A stretch of DNA of 11,436 nt from a virus, in UHGV virus genome UHGV-0258155; one strand, given 5' to 3'. Position numbers and translations under genes: made by a program. A model generated the notes under the pieces. That model was not told the origin of the DNA, made no database searches, and worked only from the letters and a program-made list of their open reading frames with translations. Below, one piece after another: positions 1 to 7,899 of this stretch. Numbering within the stretch: position 1 is the stretch's first letter; every line of letters begins with the position of its first letter.

Positions 1-2813
1 CGCCAGGCATCCAGCAGTTCGTCGGCAAATACGGCATCTGGTTTGACTGCCTTCACGGCCTGGATCATGTCTGCTTTGGTACCGTACACTTTCAGTGGTG
101 CCGGTTTCTGTGCTTCCTGAGCCACAAGGTCAGGGTTGATGATTGCCAACTGCTCCAGCAGCGCGTCACGGCTGCCGCTGGTTTTAACCGGCGGCGGCAG
201 GGTGGCGTTGTACTCTTTAATGCATGCCTTCATTGCCGTCGCCGTCTGCTTCTGGTCACCATCAATACGCTGGAAGTCAGCTGGCAGCGCCATATAGTTC
301 TGTGCCGTTTCTTCCAGGTTAGCGCCAAGCGGAACCTGCGGCGGCAGGGTGGCGTTGTACTCTTCCAGTAACACCTTGATGTCGTCGGCAGACAGCAGCG
401 CCGGCAGGCTGGCATTGTGCTCATCGATAAAGGCGCGCAGGGTCGCGGCCGTTGTGAATGCGCCTTCAGGGATCACCGGTTCAACGCTGAATTCTGCGTC
501 CAGTAGTTCAGGCTGCAACGCCAGCGCATGCACCAAGTTGCCCATGTCCAGCACCGCTGAGCGCTCTTTGACGATGGTTTTCTCTACGTGGCGCGCATTG
601 AAGTACATCAGCGAAACGCGCGCATCTTTCACCTGGGTTGAGCTGATGCCGTTGGCGGCGTGGTAAACCTCGTTTGGCAGCCCTTCATAGCGGCCTGGCT
701 CGAAATAAGCGGGATAAACAACAGCCGGTTCGTCAGATTGCGCTTCTGGCTCGGTTTGTGCTGCAACTGGTTCGGTTTGGCTTACAGAATCGCTATTTTT
801 GGCGACAGAATCCGTATTCTGGTTTACATCGTCCTTCTGGCTGGTATCTGACTCTTCACCAGACTCCAGACTGCTTTCGCCTGGCTGTACTTCATCACCA
901 GCTTGTTTTTCATCACTGACAGTTTCTTGAACCTGCACATTGCTGGTGGTCTCCGTAGCCTTTTTCGTGCCATGAGTTGCTGAGTTCTGCAGCAAAGCCG
1001 TAACGTCGAATATTCCGTTGCCGACATTTTTAACCAGTTCTTGTTCGACTTTCTGCGGTTGTGCTGCCGCTTCCTCTGCGCGGCGGCGTGCTCCTTCTTC
1101 ACGCACGCGTTGCAGGTTCTCTTCGTGAGTGCAGAAGGATTTGCGCGGAGACTCCTTACCTTCAGGTTGGGGAATTTCCTGTGCTGCGGGTTCAGCCTCA
1201 TGCAACGGCAATAACTCGACCGCGGAATTGAACGCGGCTGTCATGGTCTGGTTAACAAATTCCAGGTGAGCGACAGGAGTTAAATGAATATTTTCCGGTG
1301 CGATACGTACCAGGTTAAAAATAGCCGTGCGGTTAACACCCAGAACGCCTGGCTGATTGCGCAGGATGTTGCTCCATGATTTCCATGGTTCTTCTTTTTT
1401 GGTCACGATTTCTTTAGCGCGACGAAGAATGCTGCCCGGGATCTCGAAGTGGTTGAAGTCCATAGGCAGAAGGGCACACGCAATCTCTAAATCGAGAGTG
1501 TCCAGTGTGTGGTGTGCGTCAGGTCCACGGTCAGTGACGTAACCGCCGTCGGCATTAGTGCCGGAATCAGTACGCTGCACACTACTGATGCGATTACCGG
1601 CGGCCCATTCGCGAACGAGGATACCGCGGTCGATGTGATCTGTAGCGAACCACAATTTCAAAAACTGGATTAAGGTTGCGAGTTCAGGGATTTTTCCATC
1701 GACAGGGAAGACTTTCTTAACGGCATTCACGACTTTATGAATATCGTGCTCAATGGCTTTTTTGAATGCTTCCACATTCTCAGCTGCCAGCAGCAGGTTC
1801 TGGACGTACGCGTCATCGGTGTCCATCTCAAGGCGGACAATCTCATTTTTCTGCCCTGCGTCGATGTGATAGAGATATTCACCATCACCGATGAACTGAG
1901 CCAGTACGCGCTGGCGGAATGGCAGGGTGGCAACAACGATCAGGTTCGGTTGCTGTGTCTGCTGGGATTGCTCTTCGGTATCGACTTCACCATCAACGAC
2001 GCCACCTTCTGCCCGGCCGTTCTCGTCGGTCTGGATACCGTCCTCAACAGTGAGATCTTGACCCGTTGTAACGTCAGCAGCGTTGCTGGTTTCAGTTTTG
2101 AGCAACTGCAACTTACCACTGCGCCAGTCTTCTACCAGTTGATTGCGGTCACCGGCATCGGTGTTCACCCAGTCAGACATGAATGCAGCGATCAATCTTG
2201 GTTCGTGCTCTTCGTCGGGTGTGAAAATGTCCTTAACCGCCCGAATCATTTTCCACTCAGCATTCAGGCTGAGTTTGGCGGTCGCGGGCACATCGTTCCT
2301 TGCCACAAGCAGGCTATGGAGATATGTATTGCCTTCATCCAGTGACATTTCGCTGGCAGCCAACTGCTGCTCTTTAGTGACGTGGGTTTGGTATTTATCG
2401 TTCATCAGATGGACGGCAAAGCGGACCGCTGGAGTACGGTTTTCAACCGGGACAATTTCGGACGCAGTCGCATCTTCAACGATTACGGTCGGAGTAGGTG
2501 TGTAGGGGGCGTCAACGGAACCAGTAGACACACCAGCGGCTTTTGGCAGCCAGGTGCGCCCATCGTCCTGAAGCTCGTAGCGATCACACCAGGTAAAATC
2601 AACTTCACCTTCTTTCGGCAGGCCGTCGACAACTGGGAAATCAGTGCGAATCGGTTTGGCGTAGTCCTTACCCCGACCTGTTTCGATACCTGCATCTTCC
2701 AGCGCAACATCCAGCATCAGATTGGCGCGAGCCTCGGTTTTAGCAGTGAACCAGACCACTGCATCTTGCTTTCCGGATTTCTGAGTGGCTTTAACCACAT
2801 TAAAGAATTCCAT
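1..2813 (-). CDS. recE: RecE-type exodeoxyribonuclease VIII (Rac-prophage-like); start ATG at 2813, 3' end lies beyond window start (>=937 codons in window)
   Basis: Minus-strand frame is open from 2813 to position 1; ATG at 2813-2811 is preceded by GAGGAT (RBS) and an in-frame TGA. Hand translation gives MEFFNVVKATQKSGKQDAVVWF...PVVDGLPKEGEVDFTWCDRYELQDDGRTW...REWAAGNRISSVQRTDSG...YFEPGRYEGLPNEVYHAANGISSTQVKDA. From memory these parallel E. coli RecE segments ([56 protein letters not shown]). The ORF track lists no complete ORF in this frame because it runs off the edge. Confidence 0.85.
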   Translation of the reverse strand, partial: MEFFNVVKATQKSGKQDAVVWFTAKTEARANLMLDVALEDAGIETGRGKDYAKPIRTDFPVVDGLPKEGEVDFTWCDRYELQDDGRTWLPKAAGVSTGSVDAPYTPTPTVIVEDATASEIVPVENRTPAVRFAVHLMNDKYQTHVTKEQQLAASEMSLDEGNTYLHSLLVARNDVPATAKLSLNAEWKMIRAVKDIFTPDEEHEPRLIAAFMSDWVNTDAGDRNQLVEDWRSGKLQLLKTETSNAADVTTGQDLTVEDGIQTDENGRAEGGVVDGEVDTEEQSQQTQQPNLIVVATLPFRQRVLAQFIGDGEYLYHIDAGQKNEIVRLEMDTDDAYVQNLLLAAENVEAFKKAIEHDIHKVVNAVKKVFPVDGKIPELATLIQFLKLWFATDHIDRGILVREWAAGNRISSVQRTDSGTNADGGYVTDRGPDAHHTLDTLDLEIACALLPMDFNHFEIPGSILRRAKEIVTKKEEPWKSWSNILRNQPGVLGVNRTAIFNLVRIAPENIHLTPVAHLEFVNQTMTAAFNSAVELLPLHEAEPAAQEIPQPEGKESPRKSFCTHEENLQRVREEGARRRAEEAAAQPQKVEQELVKNVGNGIFDVTALLQNSATHGTKKATETTSNVQVQETVSDEKQAGDEVQPGESSLESGEESDTSQKDDVNQNTDSVAKNSDSVSQTEPVAAQTEPEAQSDEPAVVYPAYFEPGRYEGLPNEVYHAANGISSTQVKDARVSLMYFNARHVEKTIVKERSAVLDMGNLVHALALQPELLDAEFSVEPVIPEGAFTTAATLRAFIDEHNASLPALLSADDIKVLLEEYNATLPPQVPLGANLEETAQNYMALPADFQRIDGDQKQTATAMKACIKEYNATLPPPVKTSGSRDALLEQLAIINPDLVAQEAQKPAPLKVYGTKADMIQAVKAVKPDAVFADELLDAW
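191..364 (-). repeat. Pair of identical 27-bp direct repeats (191-217 and 338-364), 147 bp apart and in frame inside recE; each encodes EYNATLPP
   Basis: gcggcggcagggtggcgttgtactctt occurs at 191-217 and 338-364. Translation in the recE frame gives KEYNATLPPP and EEYNATLPPQ; a third degenerate copy DEHNASLPA lies upstream in the protein. Confidence 0.8.
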
Positions 2814-5396: not shown

Positions 5397-6329
5397 TTAA
5401 AGAACCGATTTAACAAGATGGTTTTTACGGTACAGACCTATGCGATCATTGTGAATCTCAGTAGTCTCCACTAAAAGAGAAACAATCTGTCCGACCTTGT
5501 GTTTTTTTTGTATTAAATCTAGCATTTCAATCGGATAGGAAGCCTTTAAATGTTCACCACCAACATCAAGCTCCAGCTTCCCATATTTGGATAGAACGAC
5601 CAGTTCGCCTGTAACCGTTTCAGTAATGGGAGGGGATGAAATGGTTGATGTAAGTCTACTCACCAAGTACTTAATTTTATTGGAGTCAATAGTTGCCACC
5701 TTGGTGCCATTACTAAATGGACCGGTCCAACTTGCATCAAATGTTAAGTTGTGTTTATCGCATTCCTCTACGATTCTCTTAAGGCTTACAGTGGAATTGT
5801 ATCCAATTTCAGCGACGTGATTCATGAAGTTGTTGTCGTCATCGCTTAACAACAAATCGAATATGCCTTTTACAGCCTTGCTGGGTACTGTTTCTACTAA
5901 TTCTGCTATTCCTGTAGAGAAGGTGACGCCCAATTTTGTAGACCCAGGGGATAAATCAGCCAGCCTGAGGTTTAAGGAGCTTTTCACGTCGTAGGGAACT
6001 TTTTTTGAGTCCTTGCCTGAGGCAATTTTGTGTGTTGCTCTTTGTATTAGCGCTGCAAGATTTGTTGAAATAGCCCCAAGCAGCTCTAAAGGAATAGAGC
6101 CAAAGTCAACCTCAGAGCCTTTCAGCCGCAGCTCAAAAAAATCGATAAGTGGGTGCCGACTATCTTGCTTTAATTTTTCGGCCTTCAAATCGCTCAGATG
6201 AGAATCCATGGAGCGATAAAGAAGCATGTCAGCAAAGGACCTGGTTTTGTTTTGCTTCATTGCATCGACTTCTTTTTGAATGAAATCAATGCGTTTATCG
6301 CAATTTTTAAACATTGATTTATCATTCAT
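5397..6329 (-). CDS. Hypothetical 310-aa protein, second gene of the cassette; no motif recognised
   Basis: ORF-track ORF; ATG at 6329 overlaps the TGA of the upstream gene (ATGA, 6326-6329), with GAGGA upstream; AT-rich codon usage (K/N/I/S rich); followed by an intrinsic terminator. Confidence 0.7.
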   Translation of the reverse strand: MNDKSMFKNCDKRIDFIQKEVDAMKQNKTRSFADMLLYRSMDSHLSDLKAEKLKQDSRHPLIDFFELRLKGSEVDFGSIPLELLGAISTNLAALIQRATHKIASGKDSKKVPYDVKSSLNLRLADLSPGSTKLGVTFSTGIAELVETVPSKAVKGIFDLLLSDDDNNFMNHVAEIGYNSTVSLKRIVEECDKHNLTFDASWTGPFSNGTKVATIDSNKIKYLVSRLTSTISSPPITETVTGELVVLSKYGKLELDVGGEHLKASYPIEMLDLIQKKHKVGQIVSLLVETTEIHNDRIGLYRKNHLVKSVL

Positions 6330-6805
6330 AAAAAAATCCTCACTAACCCTTTCGGGTTTTCACTGCGATCAAAACCAAACCAACCGCGCCAGTAGCTACG
6401 CCAGTACTCATAATCATAGTTAGGGTCATCTAAATTCTTCATGAGTAGTAGGACATCAATTTTGTAGTTTTGTTTGATGTAGTTTCGGTCAAGCAAATTA
6501 TCGACGCGGCCCCGAAGCATGACAGGTATTGAGTTTATATTGCTATAGTCACATACCAACAAAATATCAATATCATCAGGCTCTGGTTTAGACGTGGTGT
6601 ATGAACCATCAACCCATATTTCTGTAAAACAGCCATATTGAGCAGATAATTCTCGAATAGATTCGAGTAGCTGTATAAAATTACAGTATAGCATGCCTCG
6701 CCTGGATGATGAAGGAAAGCAATCGACACAATACGATTTTAATCCAGCTTCATCCATGTCATGGAACCCTGGCTCAAACAGGGGTGGGTAATTAATTTTA
6801 TCCAT
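6326..6805 (-). CDS. 159-aa protein with a minimal nucleotidyltransferase (Pol-beta superfamily)-like motif, first gene of the cassette
   Basis: ORF-track ORF; ATG at 6805. Sequence IWVDGSYTTSKPEPDDIDILLV fits the hG[GS]-x9-13-DxD pattern, with a further candidate acidic residue in NYKIDVLLL. Motif match by eye only. Confidence 0.65.
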   Translation of the reverse strand: MDKINYPPLFEPGFHDMDEAGLKSYCVDCFPSSSRRGMLYCNFIQLLESIRELSAQYGCFTEIWVDGSYTTSKPEPDDIDILLVCDYSNINSIPVMLRGRVDNLLDRNYIKQNYKIDVLLLMKNLDDPNYDYEYWRSYWRGWFGFDRSENPKGLVRIFL

Positions 6806-7071: not shown

Positions 7072-7782
7072 TTATCGGCGATATCGCAATACCGAGTACC
7101 AGAACACAAAACCGATTATCTCGACATCTGCCTCATCAGCCTCTTCATCGTCATAATCGCGATTGATGCTTCGTATTAATAGCTTCCCACCAGGCTTTCG
7201 ATAAAGCTGCTTTATGCGCTTTAAATCGCCCTGGTTAATAGCATAGAGTTCGCCGTCAATAATCCGCTTGTTGCCTGTATCGACTGCTACCGTTGCGCCG
7301 TCAGGAATAACGGGCTCCATGCTGTCACCAGAAGCGGGAAAGCAAAGCACTCCAGAACCATCACTATTTGCACCCACCCTTCTGAGCGTTGCCTTGGAGA
7401 ACCTCAGTTTAAAGCCGTTATGATCTTCGCTATGAACACGCCCATCACCACACGCAAACTCGATATCCTTCAGAAACGGTACTTCCACCTCATCGTCAGG
7501 TAGGGGGGTATTTTTGTCCCAAGCGTCGACAGTTCCCCACTCAGACTCTGGCGGGATGTTGCTCTCCAGATCCTTCTTTGGAGAACCCTCTCCATTTAAT
7601 AACCAGTCAAGAGAATAACCGAATTTTTCAGATATTTGTTGCGCCGCCTCACGACTTAACGCGTCTCTTTTTATCCAGTTGTTGACGGTCTGTGGGCTAG
7701 TCGACAAAGCCTCAGCCAAATCCCGCTGCTTCAAGCCTTCCCTTGCCAGTAAAAATTTAATTCTTTCAGAAATGCTGCTCAT
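7072..7782 (-). CDS. CI-type prophage repressor: N-terminal XRE-family HTH plus C-terminal S24 (LexA-like) self-cleaving peptidase domain
   Basis: ORF-track ORF 7072..7836. I place the start at the internal ATG 7782 (MSSISERIKFLLAREGLKQRDLAEAL...), which has GGAGCGGAGGG immediately upstream. GDSMEP (Ser nucleophile) and a downstream LKRIK Lys fit the S24 family. Confidence 0.85.
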   Translation of the reverse strand: MSSISERIKFLLAREGLKQRDLAEALSTSPQTVNNWIKRDALSREAAQQISEKFGYSLDWLLNGEGSPKKDLESNIPPESEWGTVDAWDKNTPLPDDEVEVPFLKDIEFACGDGRVHSEDHNGFKLRFSKATLRRVGANSDGSGVLCFPASGDSMEPVIPDGATVAVDTGNKRIIDGELYAINQGDLKRIKQLYRKPGGKLLIRSINRDYDDEEADEADVEIIGFVFWYSVLRYRR

Positions 7783-7899
7783 AAAACCCTCCGCTCCATG
7801 CATGGTAAACAACATGTGGATTTTTTCCATCACCATAATGTTGATTTAATCCACGCCATGAATTAACATGGTGTTGATTACACATGAGCGGAGCAAAAC
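7783..7899. promoter_or_regulatory. OR-like divergent promoter/operator region between the cI-like and cro-like genes; three TGTKGATT repeats (7815, 7839, 7872); candidate PR TTGATT (7841-7846) - 17 bp - TAACAT (7864-7869)
   Basis: Repeats read directly and shared with the OL-like cluster; the motif GGTGTTGA at 7870-7877 recurs as its reverse complement TCAACACC at 4947-4954. Confidence 0.45.

Follow-up and report, generated by a model that had tools for sequence, protein, structure and literature searches.

A predicted helical domain, apparently grown from a SAP motif, fills the presumed DNA-capturing loop of a prophage RecE-family exonuclease

The stretch of DNA analysed here, 11,436 nucleotides of UHGV virus genome UHGV-0258155 (the window), carries at its left end most of a gene for a RecE-family exodeoxyribonuclease, and the nuclease domain of the encoded protein is interrupted by a long insert that contains exact 27-bp repeats. 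In this work we describe the insert, trace its probable origin to a SAP motif, follow the gain and loss of its repeat units among near-identical alleles and weigh what it might do for the enzyme. The parts of the gene on which the argument turns are as follows.

3 to 2813, minus strand: recE-family exodeoxyribonuclease gene; ATG at 2813 (MEFFNVVKATQ...), first 937 of 1129 codons, the left window end cutting the gene
2508 to 2804, minus strand: N-terminal Exonuc_VIII domain, amino acids (aa) 4-102 (Pfam PF06630, E 1.3e-32, 113.8 bits against a cut-off of 25)
477 to 716, minus strand: first PD-(D/E)XK segment, aa 700-779, from the phmmer alignment to 3H4R; contains YHAANGISSTQ, LDMGNLVH and FSVEP
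3 to 476, minus strand: inserted all-helical domain, aa 780-937 of 780-942, supported by alignment, AlphaFold2 (AF2) prediction and the ratio of nonsynonymous to synonymous substitution rates (dN/dS)

About 20 complete E. coli chromosomes carry recE DNA that is 99.9% identical to the window's by nucleotide comparison, and the copy in E. coli YPE10 encodes 1129 aa and is annotated by PGAP as 'RecE family exodeoxyribonuclease'. The window holds aa 1-937; the last five residues of the insert and the remainder of the nuclease domain (the last 192 aa) were taken from the 99.9%-identical E. coli genomes. The DUF3799 PD-(D/E)XK domain (PF12684, 39.3 bits against a cut-off of 26) is recognised as a match that the insert divides in two. 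Both PHROG 607 and NCBIfam PRK09709 match the protein, yet the equivalog test of the latter failed (515 bits against a cut-off of 1269), and the product is a member of the RecE family rather than an equivalog of K-12 RecE. Within the first nuclease segment, YHAANGISSTQ lies at 633-665, LDMGNLVH at 528-551 and FSVEP at 477-491. The His and Tyr of this segment are invariant across a 55-sequence alignment, and the His of LDMGNLVH corresponds to K-12 His652, which is the His of LDLGTAFH in K-12 recE as translated from MG1655 (residues 665-698 were checked in the same translation). Catalytic residues H79, D316, D329 and K331, in the numbering of homologue P0017, are also invariant in the 55 sequences, the PD and D-x-K elements falling past the window's left end. 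A first-pass annotation of this DNA had proposed a recE-like nuclease and had placed its YHA motif correctly; the PF06630 domain, the split PF12684 match, the PGAP name and the best PDB match of the C-terminal domain model in a Foldseek search, RecE 3H4R (E 3.3e-9), all bear that identification out.

In the E. coli copies recE is followed, in this order, by genes for a RecT family recombinase, a DUF4060 protein and a tyrosine integrase, and the locus is the left arm of a Rac-like prophage. Beyond the window, recT lies 11 bp downstream of recE in YPE10, CUWW10, UPEC85 and 730V1, and this RecT partner is 370 aa long (1300-2412 of locus L001) against 269 aa for K-12 RecT. The DNA of the nuclease domain is 100% identical to that of phage mEp237 and 79-89% identical to that of HK225, Gifsy-1, Gifsy-2, SPN3UB and Klebsiella prophages; the lineage includes mEp237, HK225, Gifsy-1 and Gifsy-2 (each of which carries a recE gene), SPN3UB and prophages of Enterobacterales including Klebsiella, Enterobacter, Citrobacter and Serratia. 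The gene is predicted to encode a RecE-family 5'-3' exonuclease acting on double-stranded DNA (dsDNA), from a Rac-like lambdoid prophage. It resembles K-12 Rac RecE (3H4R) in joining an N-terminal Exonuc_VIII domain to a C-terminal PD-(D/E)XK domain of the PD...DxK type with a conserved His, and in having an adjacent recT in the full-length E. coli copies. The two nuclease domains, in contrast, are only about 23-29% identical, and they differ most plainly in the stretch that we consider now.

Anchors provided by BLASTP and by the motifs fix the insertion point on both sides: FSVEP (aa 775-779) matches K-12 FIVAP (665-669), and GKVLVT (from aa 943) matches K-12 GKTVIT (from 693). Between them, the window protein has 163 aa (780-942) and K-12 RecE has 23 aa (670-692), so that what had been suspected from the repeats, an insertion relative to E. 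coli RecE, is supported by the alignment. K-12 RecE has here a slightly basic stretch of 23 residues in a disordered loop, whereas the 163 residues of the window protein make up an ordered, acidic, helical domain. RecE is a ring-shaped tetramer, and its loops at residues 665-698, largely disordered in 3H4R, project from the central channel's rim and presumably capture the dsDNA substrate (PMC11611040). The insertion falls within 665-698 and therefore inside the element thought to meet DNA.

We surveyed the family by searching 1.8 billion cluster representatives with P0017, a 446-aa C-terminal-domain homologue that is 90% identical, which gave 2150 hits. Loop length, taken as the distance between the flanking nuclease segments, was measured in 80 of them and defines these classes.

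10-18 aa: basic loops of the DKRTKAGKE type, K-12-like
about 50-60 aa: single SAP-like module
108 aa: shortened window type
156 aa: window type
208 aa: expanded window type

The insertion is not a universal part of RecE-family nucleases, since the loop is only 10-18 aa long in many relatives. The same loop is occupied in other proteins by an unrelated second repeat series (PTxPQRxKYDxWVKxGKP units), over 45-182 aa. In these proteins (P0175, P0180, P0183, P0185, P0186, P0191, P0206 and P0207) units of about 22-24 aa, such as KPTDKQIADYEAWEAAGKPEPYSG, vary in number to give loops of 45, 88, 126, 135 and 182 aa, and a Pfam search returned no match for this repeat type. The rim loop of RecE-like nucleases seems to be generally prone to the expansion of repeats.

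The insert itself consists, in order, of A1, A2, a spacer helix, A3, B1 with its tail, and B2, where A and B denote half-motifs that resemble helix 1 and helix 2 of a SAP motif.

396 to 455, minus strand: A1, helix-1-like half-motif, copy 1 (TTAATLRAFIDEHNASLPAL); carries the degenerate third repeat (393-424)
336 to 395, minus strand: A2, helix-1-like half-motif, copy 2 (LSADDIKVLLEEYNATLPPQ); carries copy 1 of the 27-bp repeat (338-364)
246 to 335, minus strand: spacer with one short helix (VPLGANLEETAQNYMALPADFQRIDGDQKQ); Y62, L65 and P66 (insert numbering) conserved
189 to 245, minus strand: A3, helix-1-like half-motif, copy 3 (TATAMKACIKEYNATLPPP); carries copy 2 of the 27-bp repeat (191-217)
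96 to 188, minus strand: B1, helix-2-like half-motif, copy 1, with linker (VKTSGSRDALLEQLAIINPDLVAQEAQKPAP); G102 and R104 conserved
3 to 95, minus strand: B2, terminal helix-2 half-motif and return to the nuclease core (LKVYGTKADMIQAVKAVKPDAVFADELLDAW); G133 and K135 conserved
191 to 337, minus strand: 147-bp (49-codon) unit lost in 730V1 and duplicated in CUWW10; register arbitrary within the 27-bp repeat

The three A units share the consensus x-[IL]-[KR]-x-x-[IL]-x-E-[YH]-N-A-[ST]-L-P and the two B units share K-x-S-G-x-[KR]-x-x-L-[IL]. For the whole C-terminal domain, AF2 run on the 55-sequence alignment gave a predicted local distance difference test score (pLDDT) of 94.6 and a predicted TM score (pTM) of 0.80, with the insert fully ordered and helical. 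The pLDDT of the insert was 90-98 within the full-domain model and 92.6 when the insert was modelled alone; A1 corresponds to helix 11-24 of this latter model. Across 19 inserts, down to 34% identity, the sequences are colinear without internal gaps, and the Asn of each xYNAxLP (N22, N42 and N91) never varies, nor does the Gly of each SG (G102 and G133); the most conserved stretch is MKACIKEYNATLP in A3. Ten basic and twelve acidic positions are conserved. Pairwise comparisons put dN/dS at 0.06-0.15 for the insert, a level that the nuclease core shares, with dS of about 1 or more. The spacing between the nuclease segments is 164 aa in 48 of 53 evaluable Enterobacterales species-representative loci, which were searched with an alignment of 7 closer insert sequences (165 aa in four, 215 aa in one), and in 40/40 evaluable IMG/VR contigs. 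As judged from these sequences, the insert is under purifying selection.

These results bear directly on the idea that the insert has no function, a surface loop whose expansion is merely put up with and whose repeat DNA, grown by slippage, is neutral for the enzyme. That idea draws on the loop's being a hot spot, ranging from 10 to 210 aa in relatives and including the second, unrelated repeat type, and on the fact that alleles with one, two and three copies of the repeat, described below, are all in frame. A neutral insert would sit poorly with a dN/dS as low as that of the catalytic core, and no better with an architecture that stays colinear to 34% identity with invariant residues, a length fixed in nearly all species loci and in every viral contig, and a very confidently predicted fold. 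We regard neutral expansion as very improbable.

An origin for the domain is suggested by its distant relatives. The loops of P0244, P0245, P0251 and P0258 score 36.6, 37.6, 32.6 and 26.6 bits on the Pfam SAP family PF02037 (cut-off 23.9). In hhalign comparisons, which took in short conserved flanks of the nuclease core, the 59-aa class is linked over its full length to the single-SAP loops (98.5% probability, E 2.6e-15), the C-terminal end of the 156-aa class (the B2 helix and exit motif) is linked to the single-SAP relatives (98.1%, E 1.3e-13), and its N-terminal end (A1) falls on SAP helix 1 (75%, E 2.4e-5). The single-SAP RecE/DUF3799 nucleases (these four proteins and the 59-aa class, P0146-P0157) share with the window type the insertion point, an entry motif P-x-G-A-[FL]-x-T, an exit motif P-[DE]-A-[VI]-F-[AW]-D-E, and homologous first and last helices. 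They differ in having one helix 1 and one helix 2 within 50-60 aa, the four named proteins passing the Pfam SAP cut-off, while the window type has about 100 further residues between these helices, made up of duplicated half-motifs and the spacer. We conclude that the inserted domain most probably descends from a single SAP (helix-extended-helix) motif of the kind still present in the same loop of distant relatives, and that it grew by internal duplication of SAP half-motifs, to three copies of helix 1, two of helix 2 and one spacer helix. Each A helix has a conserved basic residue at an equivalent position (R15, K35 and K84), each B helix has G-x-[KR] (R104 and K135), and the conserved basic residues of all five half-motifs are SAP signature positions. 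One position in B2 sets the window apart: at position 85 (codon 84-86, aa 910) it reads TAC (Tyr) where YPE10, CUWW10 and 730V1 read TCC (Ser) by DNA comparison. This S910Y change hits the [ST]-G ahead of SAP helix 2 (LKVSGTKAD), and the equivalent residue is Ser, Thr or, in one relative, Ala, but never Tyr, among the distinct inserts listed for the IMG/VR loci, the five non-standard species loci and the homologues in the alignment. The Tyr may be a substitution private to the window at a conserved site, or it may come from an error in sequencing.

SAP domains are found in the C-terminus of Ku70, in the Ydc2/Cce1 resolvase (1kcf), in FAN1 and in SLX4. The window protein resembles these in that a small module, putatively helix-extended-helix, is coupled to an enzyme working on DNA ends or branched DNA, and where helix 2 begins it keeps G-x-[KR], the Pfam SAP signature. 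In those proteins, however, SAP is a single terminal appendage, whereas here it lies within the catalytic domain as an array of five half-motifs, and a search of the PDB found no comparable SAP half-motif array. When the insert alone was used as a protein query, every hit was a short fragment and none was clear evidence of the array outside RecE, although this is not a strong test; most of the named fragments were exodeoxyribonuclease (VIII), two were a DNA breaking-rejoining protein, several were unnamed or 'hypothetical protein', and one unnamed fragment carried PF27398. The sequences have long been deposited and annotated, and the gene is not a new system. Among the papers that we could search, none links a SAP domain with RecE or exonuclease VIII, and a 2023 structural review makes no mention of such an insert in RecE.

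The DNA of the insert carries a direct-repeat family of 32 nucleotides, at 186-217, 333-364 (97%) and 393-424 (75%), spaced by 147 and 60 nucleotides. The exact common stretch is 27 nucleotides, AAGAGTACAACGCCACCCTGCCGCCGC on the coding (minus) strand, at 191-217 and 338-364, 147 bp apart, and it forms the DNA of the ends of A2 and A3. Chance is ruled out as the origin of these repeats, since about 4e-9 such exact pairs would be expected in 11.4 kb. Translation of the minus-strand frame gives KEYNATLPP at aa 866-874, EEYNATLPP at aa 817-825 and the degenerate DEHNASLPA at aa 797-805. The first-pass annotation had reported two identical 27-bp repeats 147 bp apart with a degenerate third, encoding in frame two EYNATLPP peptides and one EHNASLPA, and had regarded the repeats as open to copy-number change. 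Each of these points holds: the repeats stand where it put them, their reading frame is that of recE, the structure prediction it called for places them in a confidently predicted all-helical inserted domain, and E. coli alleles with one, two and three copies (-147, 0 and +147 bp) exist.

Specifically, E. coli CUWW10 has an exact extra 147 bp, with three 27-mers and a protein of 1178 aa, and E. coli O19:H7 730V1 has 147 bp fewer, with one 27-mer (...LLEEYNATLPPPVKTSG...), both in frame. Apart from that, each gene matches the window's at 99.8% identity or better over the region compared, and in each the junction falls exactly within the repeat. Recombination between the repeats, or replication slippage, adds or removes in frame one 49-residue unit made of the spacer and one A helix. 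The two-copy form is by far the commonest: copy-number variants account for 2/34 E. coli records at 99% identity or more and for 0/40 IMG/VR loci, and 1/53 species loci shows a different modular gain. Further modular variants, older or of independent origin, are known: P0012 is a diverged three-copy form, P0151 is a one-copy form in another lineage, and in P0013, P0114, P0119-P0121 and Silvania confinis L108 one additional A helix (20 aa) is accompanied by one additional B unit (31 aa). The stretch shared by A2 and A3 also differs between lineages. It is 27 bp ending CCGCCGC in the window, 22 bp with CCAGCGC in L003, L007 and L008, 30 bp with ACTCTGCCAGCACAGGTG in L009 and L011, and only 12-15 bp in Gifsy-1, L010 and a Klebsiella phage. 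A2 and A3 are more alike within a gene (identity 0.88) than paralogues are across lineages (0.82). Because variants specific to a lineage are common to its A2 and A3 although dS between lineages is about 1, the pattern is suggestive, in a small sample, of occasional homogenisation of A2 and A3, whether through conversion or through successive gains and losses.

Exact 27-bp direct repeats 147 bp apart, both gain and loss among near-identical alleles and a hint of homogenisation between the two copies are also what might be expected of a contingency locus, at which high-frequency switching of repeat number would vary RecE function within a population. The variants are rare in all three samples just given, the single species locus among them being that different modular gain, and the changes are always in frame, so the repeats are no on/off switch. 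The repeat, furthermore, covers only 27 of each 147 bp and so does not constitute a true tandem array. We therefore reject fast phase variation, and a contingency locus of this kind is the least probable of the accounts that we considered.

Our preferred account, to which we give a probability of roughly 0.6 as a whole, is that the insert is a SAP-derived domain with duplicated half-motifs, that units are gained and lost through its repeats, and that the arrays engage DNA from the rim. Because RecE is a ring tetramer with the 665-698 loops on its channel rim, four helical arrays would crown the channel mouth of a RecE-like tetramer. From that position they would most probably engage the duplex in front of the active site so as to capture or hold a DNA end, by means of the basic residues that are conserved at SAP signature positions, and a change in unit number would alter the reach or the geometry of the crown. 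The rim loops of lambda exonuclease (Arg45) offer a parallel to the role that we propose for the array, although that enzyme is a trimer whose subunits are oppositely oriented in the ring, its loops are short, and we found no sequence relation between it and the insert.

Several observations weigh against this account. The window insert itself fails the Pfam SAP cut-off (14.3 bits, E 0.033, against 23.9) and its match covers B2 only, the nuclease-core flanks inflated the hhalign scores somewhat, and a BFVD fold search with the insert model gave no significant match (best E 0.39). Each copy-number allele is known from one public assembly. The position of the array in a tetramer would follow from a review's description of K-12 RecE. 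The insert is, finally, acidic overall, with a net charge of -9 and an isoelectric point (pI) of 4.5; the longer the insert, the more acidic it is, while relatives with a minimal loop have a basic one. The charge speaks against a simple electrostatic clamp, and it therefore makes a serious rival of the proposal that the array is a protein-docking platform, which would bring the cognate RecT, SSB or some other factor of host or phage to the ring's DNA-entry face or would contact RecE's own large N-terminal part. Docking is further favoured by the twelve conserved acidic positions and by the greater length of the cognate RecT relative to that of K-12, since the pair may have co-evolved. It would, on the other hand, place a protein contact where K-12 RecE has a loop presumed to capture dsDNA, and it leaves aside the basic residues at SAP signature positions, which each of the five half-motifs conserves. 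We gave DNA engagement about twice the weight of docking, because the site is that presumed DNA-capturing loop and the SAP basic residues are kept in every half-motif; docking is a possibility to be taken seriously, if a minority one. A more far-reaching form of the DNA-engagement account would make the array a length-tunable crown on the DNA-entry face that sets how DNA ends are engaged (for example which ends are preferred, how processive the enzyme is, or how an acidic and partly DNA-like surface gates the channel), with the rim loop as a general evolutionary socket for the insertion and expansion of repeat modules, two unrelated types of which occur there. One-, two- and three-unit alleles would then differ measurably in recombination activity. 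We put this forward tentatively and think it rather unlikely in its full extent.

Other variation in recE was seen alongside the repeat alleles. UPEC85 (L003) has a recE without window positions 1878-1985 (aa 277-312), an in-frame deletion of 108 bp flanked by the 10-bp direct repeat TGATGGTGAA (VVDGE / IGDGE), which is a second case of in-frame deletion between short direct repeats within the gene. In NCTC_13148 (L004 2451-5739) a deletion takes recE's 3' end together with the 5' end of recT and leaves a 941-aa RecE with a foreign tail, and in 730V1 (L005 2501-5263) a different mosaic segment serves as the N-terminal third of a RecE of 920 aa in total, with an identical C-terminal part. A large share of the database entries for recE are 'partial' proteins at the edges of contigs of 0.3-25 kb, especially in Salmonella, probably because several prophages per genome share a near-identical recE that breaks short-read assemblies. 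Plus-strand open reading frames (ORFs) at 136-297, 349-666 and 660-851 were set aside as by-products of the strongly conserved minus-strand frame. The other genes of the window are those of a usual early region and encode a CI-like S24 repressor, a YdaT-like protein, an O-like replication protein and a DnaC-like loader. Between the early-left genes and the CI-like repressor gene (7072-7836) lie two overlapping cargo ORFs (5397-6805, minus strand). The ORF at 6326-6805 encodes 159 aa with Pfam DUF6932 and matches PADLOC PDC-M63A (E 1.8e-41), and that at 5397-6329 encodes 310 aa with no Pfam match and matches PDC-M63B (E 7.5e-45); the pair is a candidate two-gene anti-phage system, PDC-M63.

These findings are of interest mainly to those who work on phage recombinases and recombineering. 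RecET is a recombineering workhorse, and what is known of RecE's structure comes from the K-12 nuclease domain, in which the loops presumed to capture DNA are disordered. Should the inserted domain prove dispensable, it would still be a clean example of domain growth by half-motif duplication with homogenisation between the copies. Alleles with one, two and three units, and relatives with one or two extra half-motif pairs, make up a natural series for direct comparison, and the insert may account for functional differences among the RecE homologues that are used in genome engineering. An ordered, conserved domain of recognisable ancestry in place of the rim loops provides a tractable handle on how a RecE-type ring engages DNA ends.

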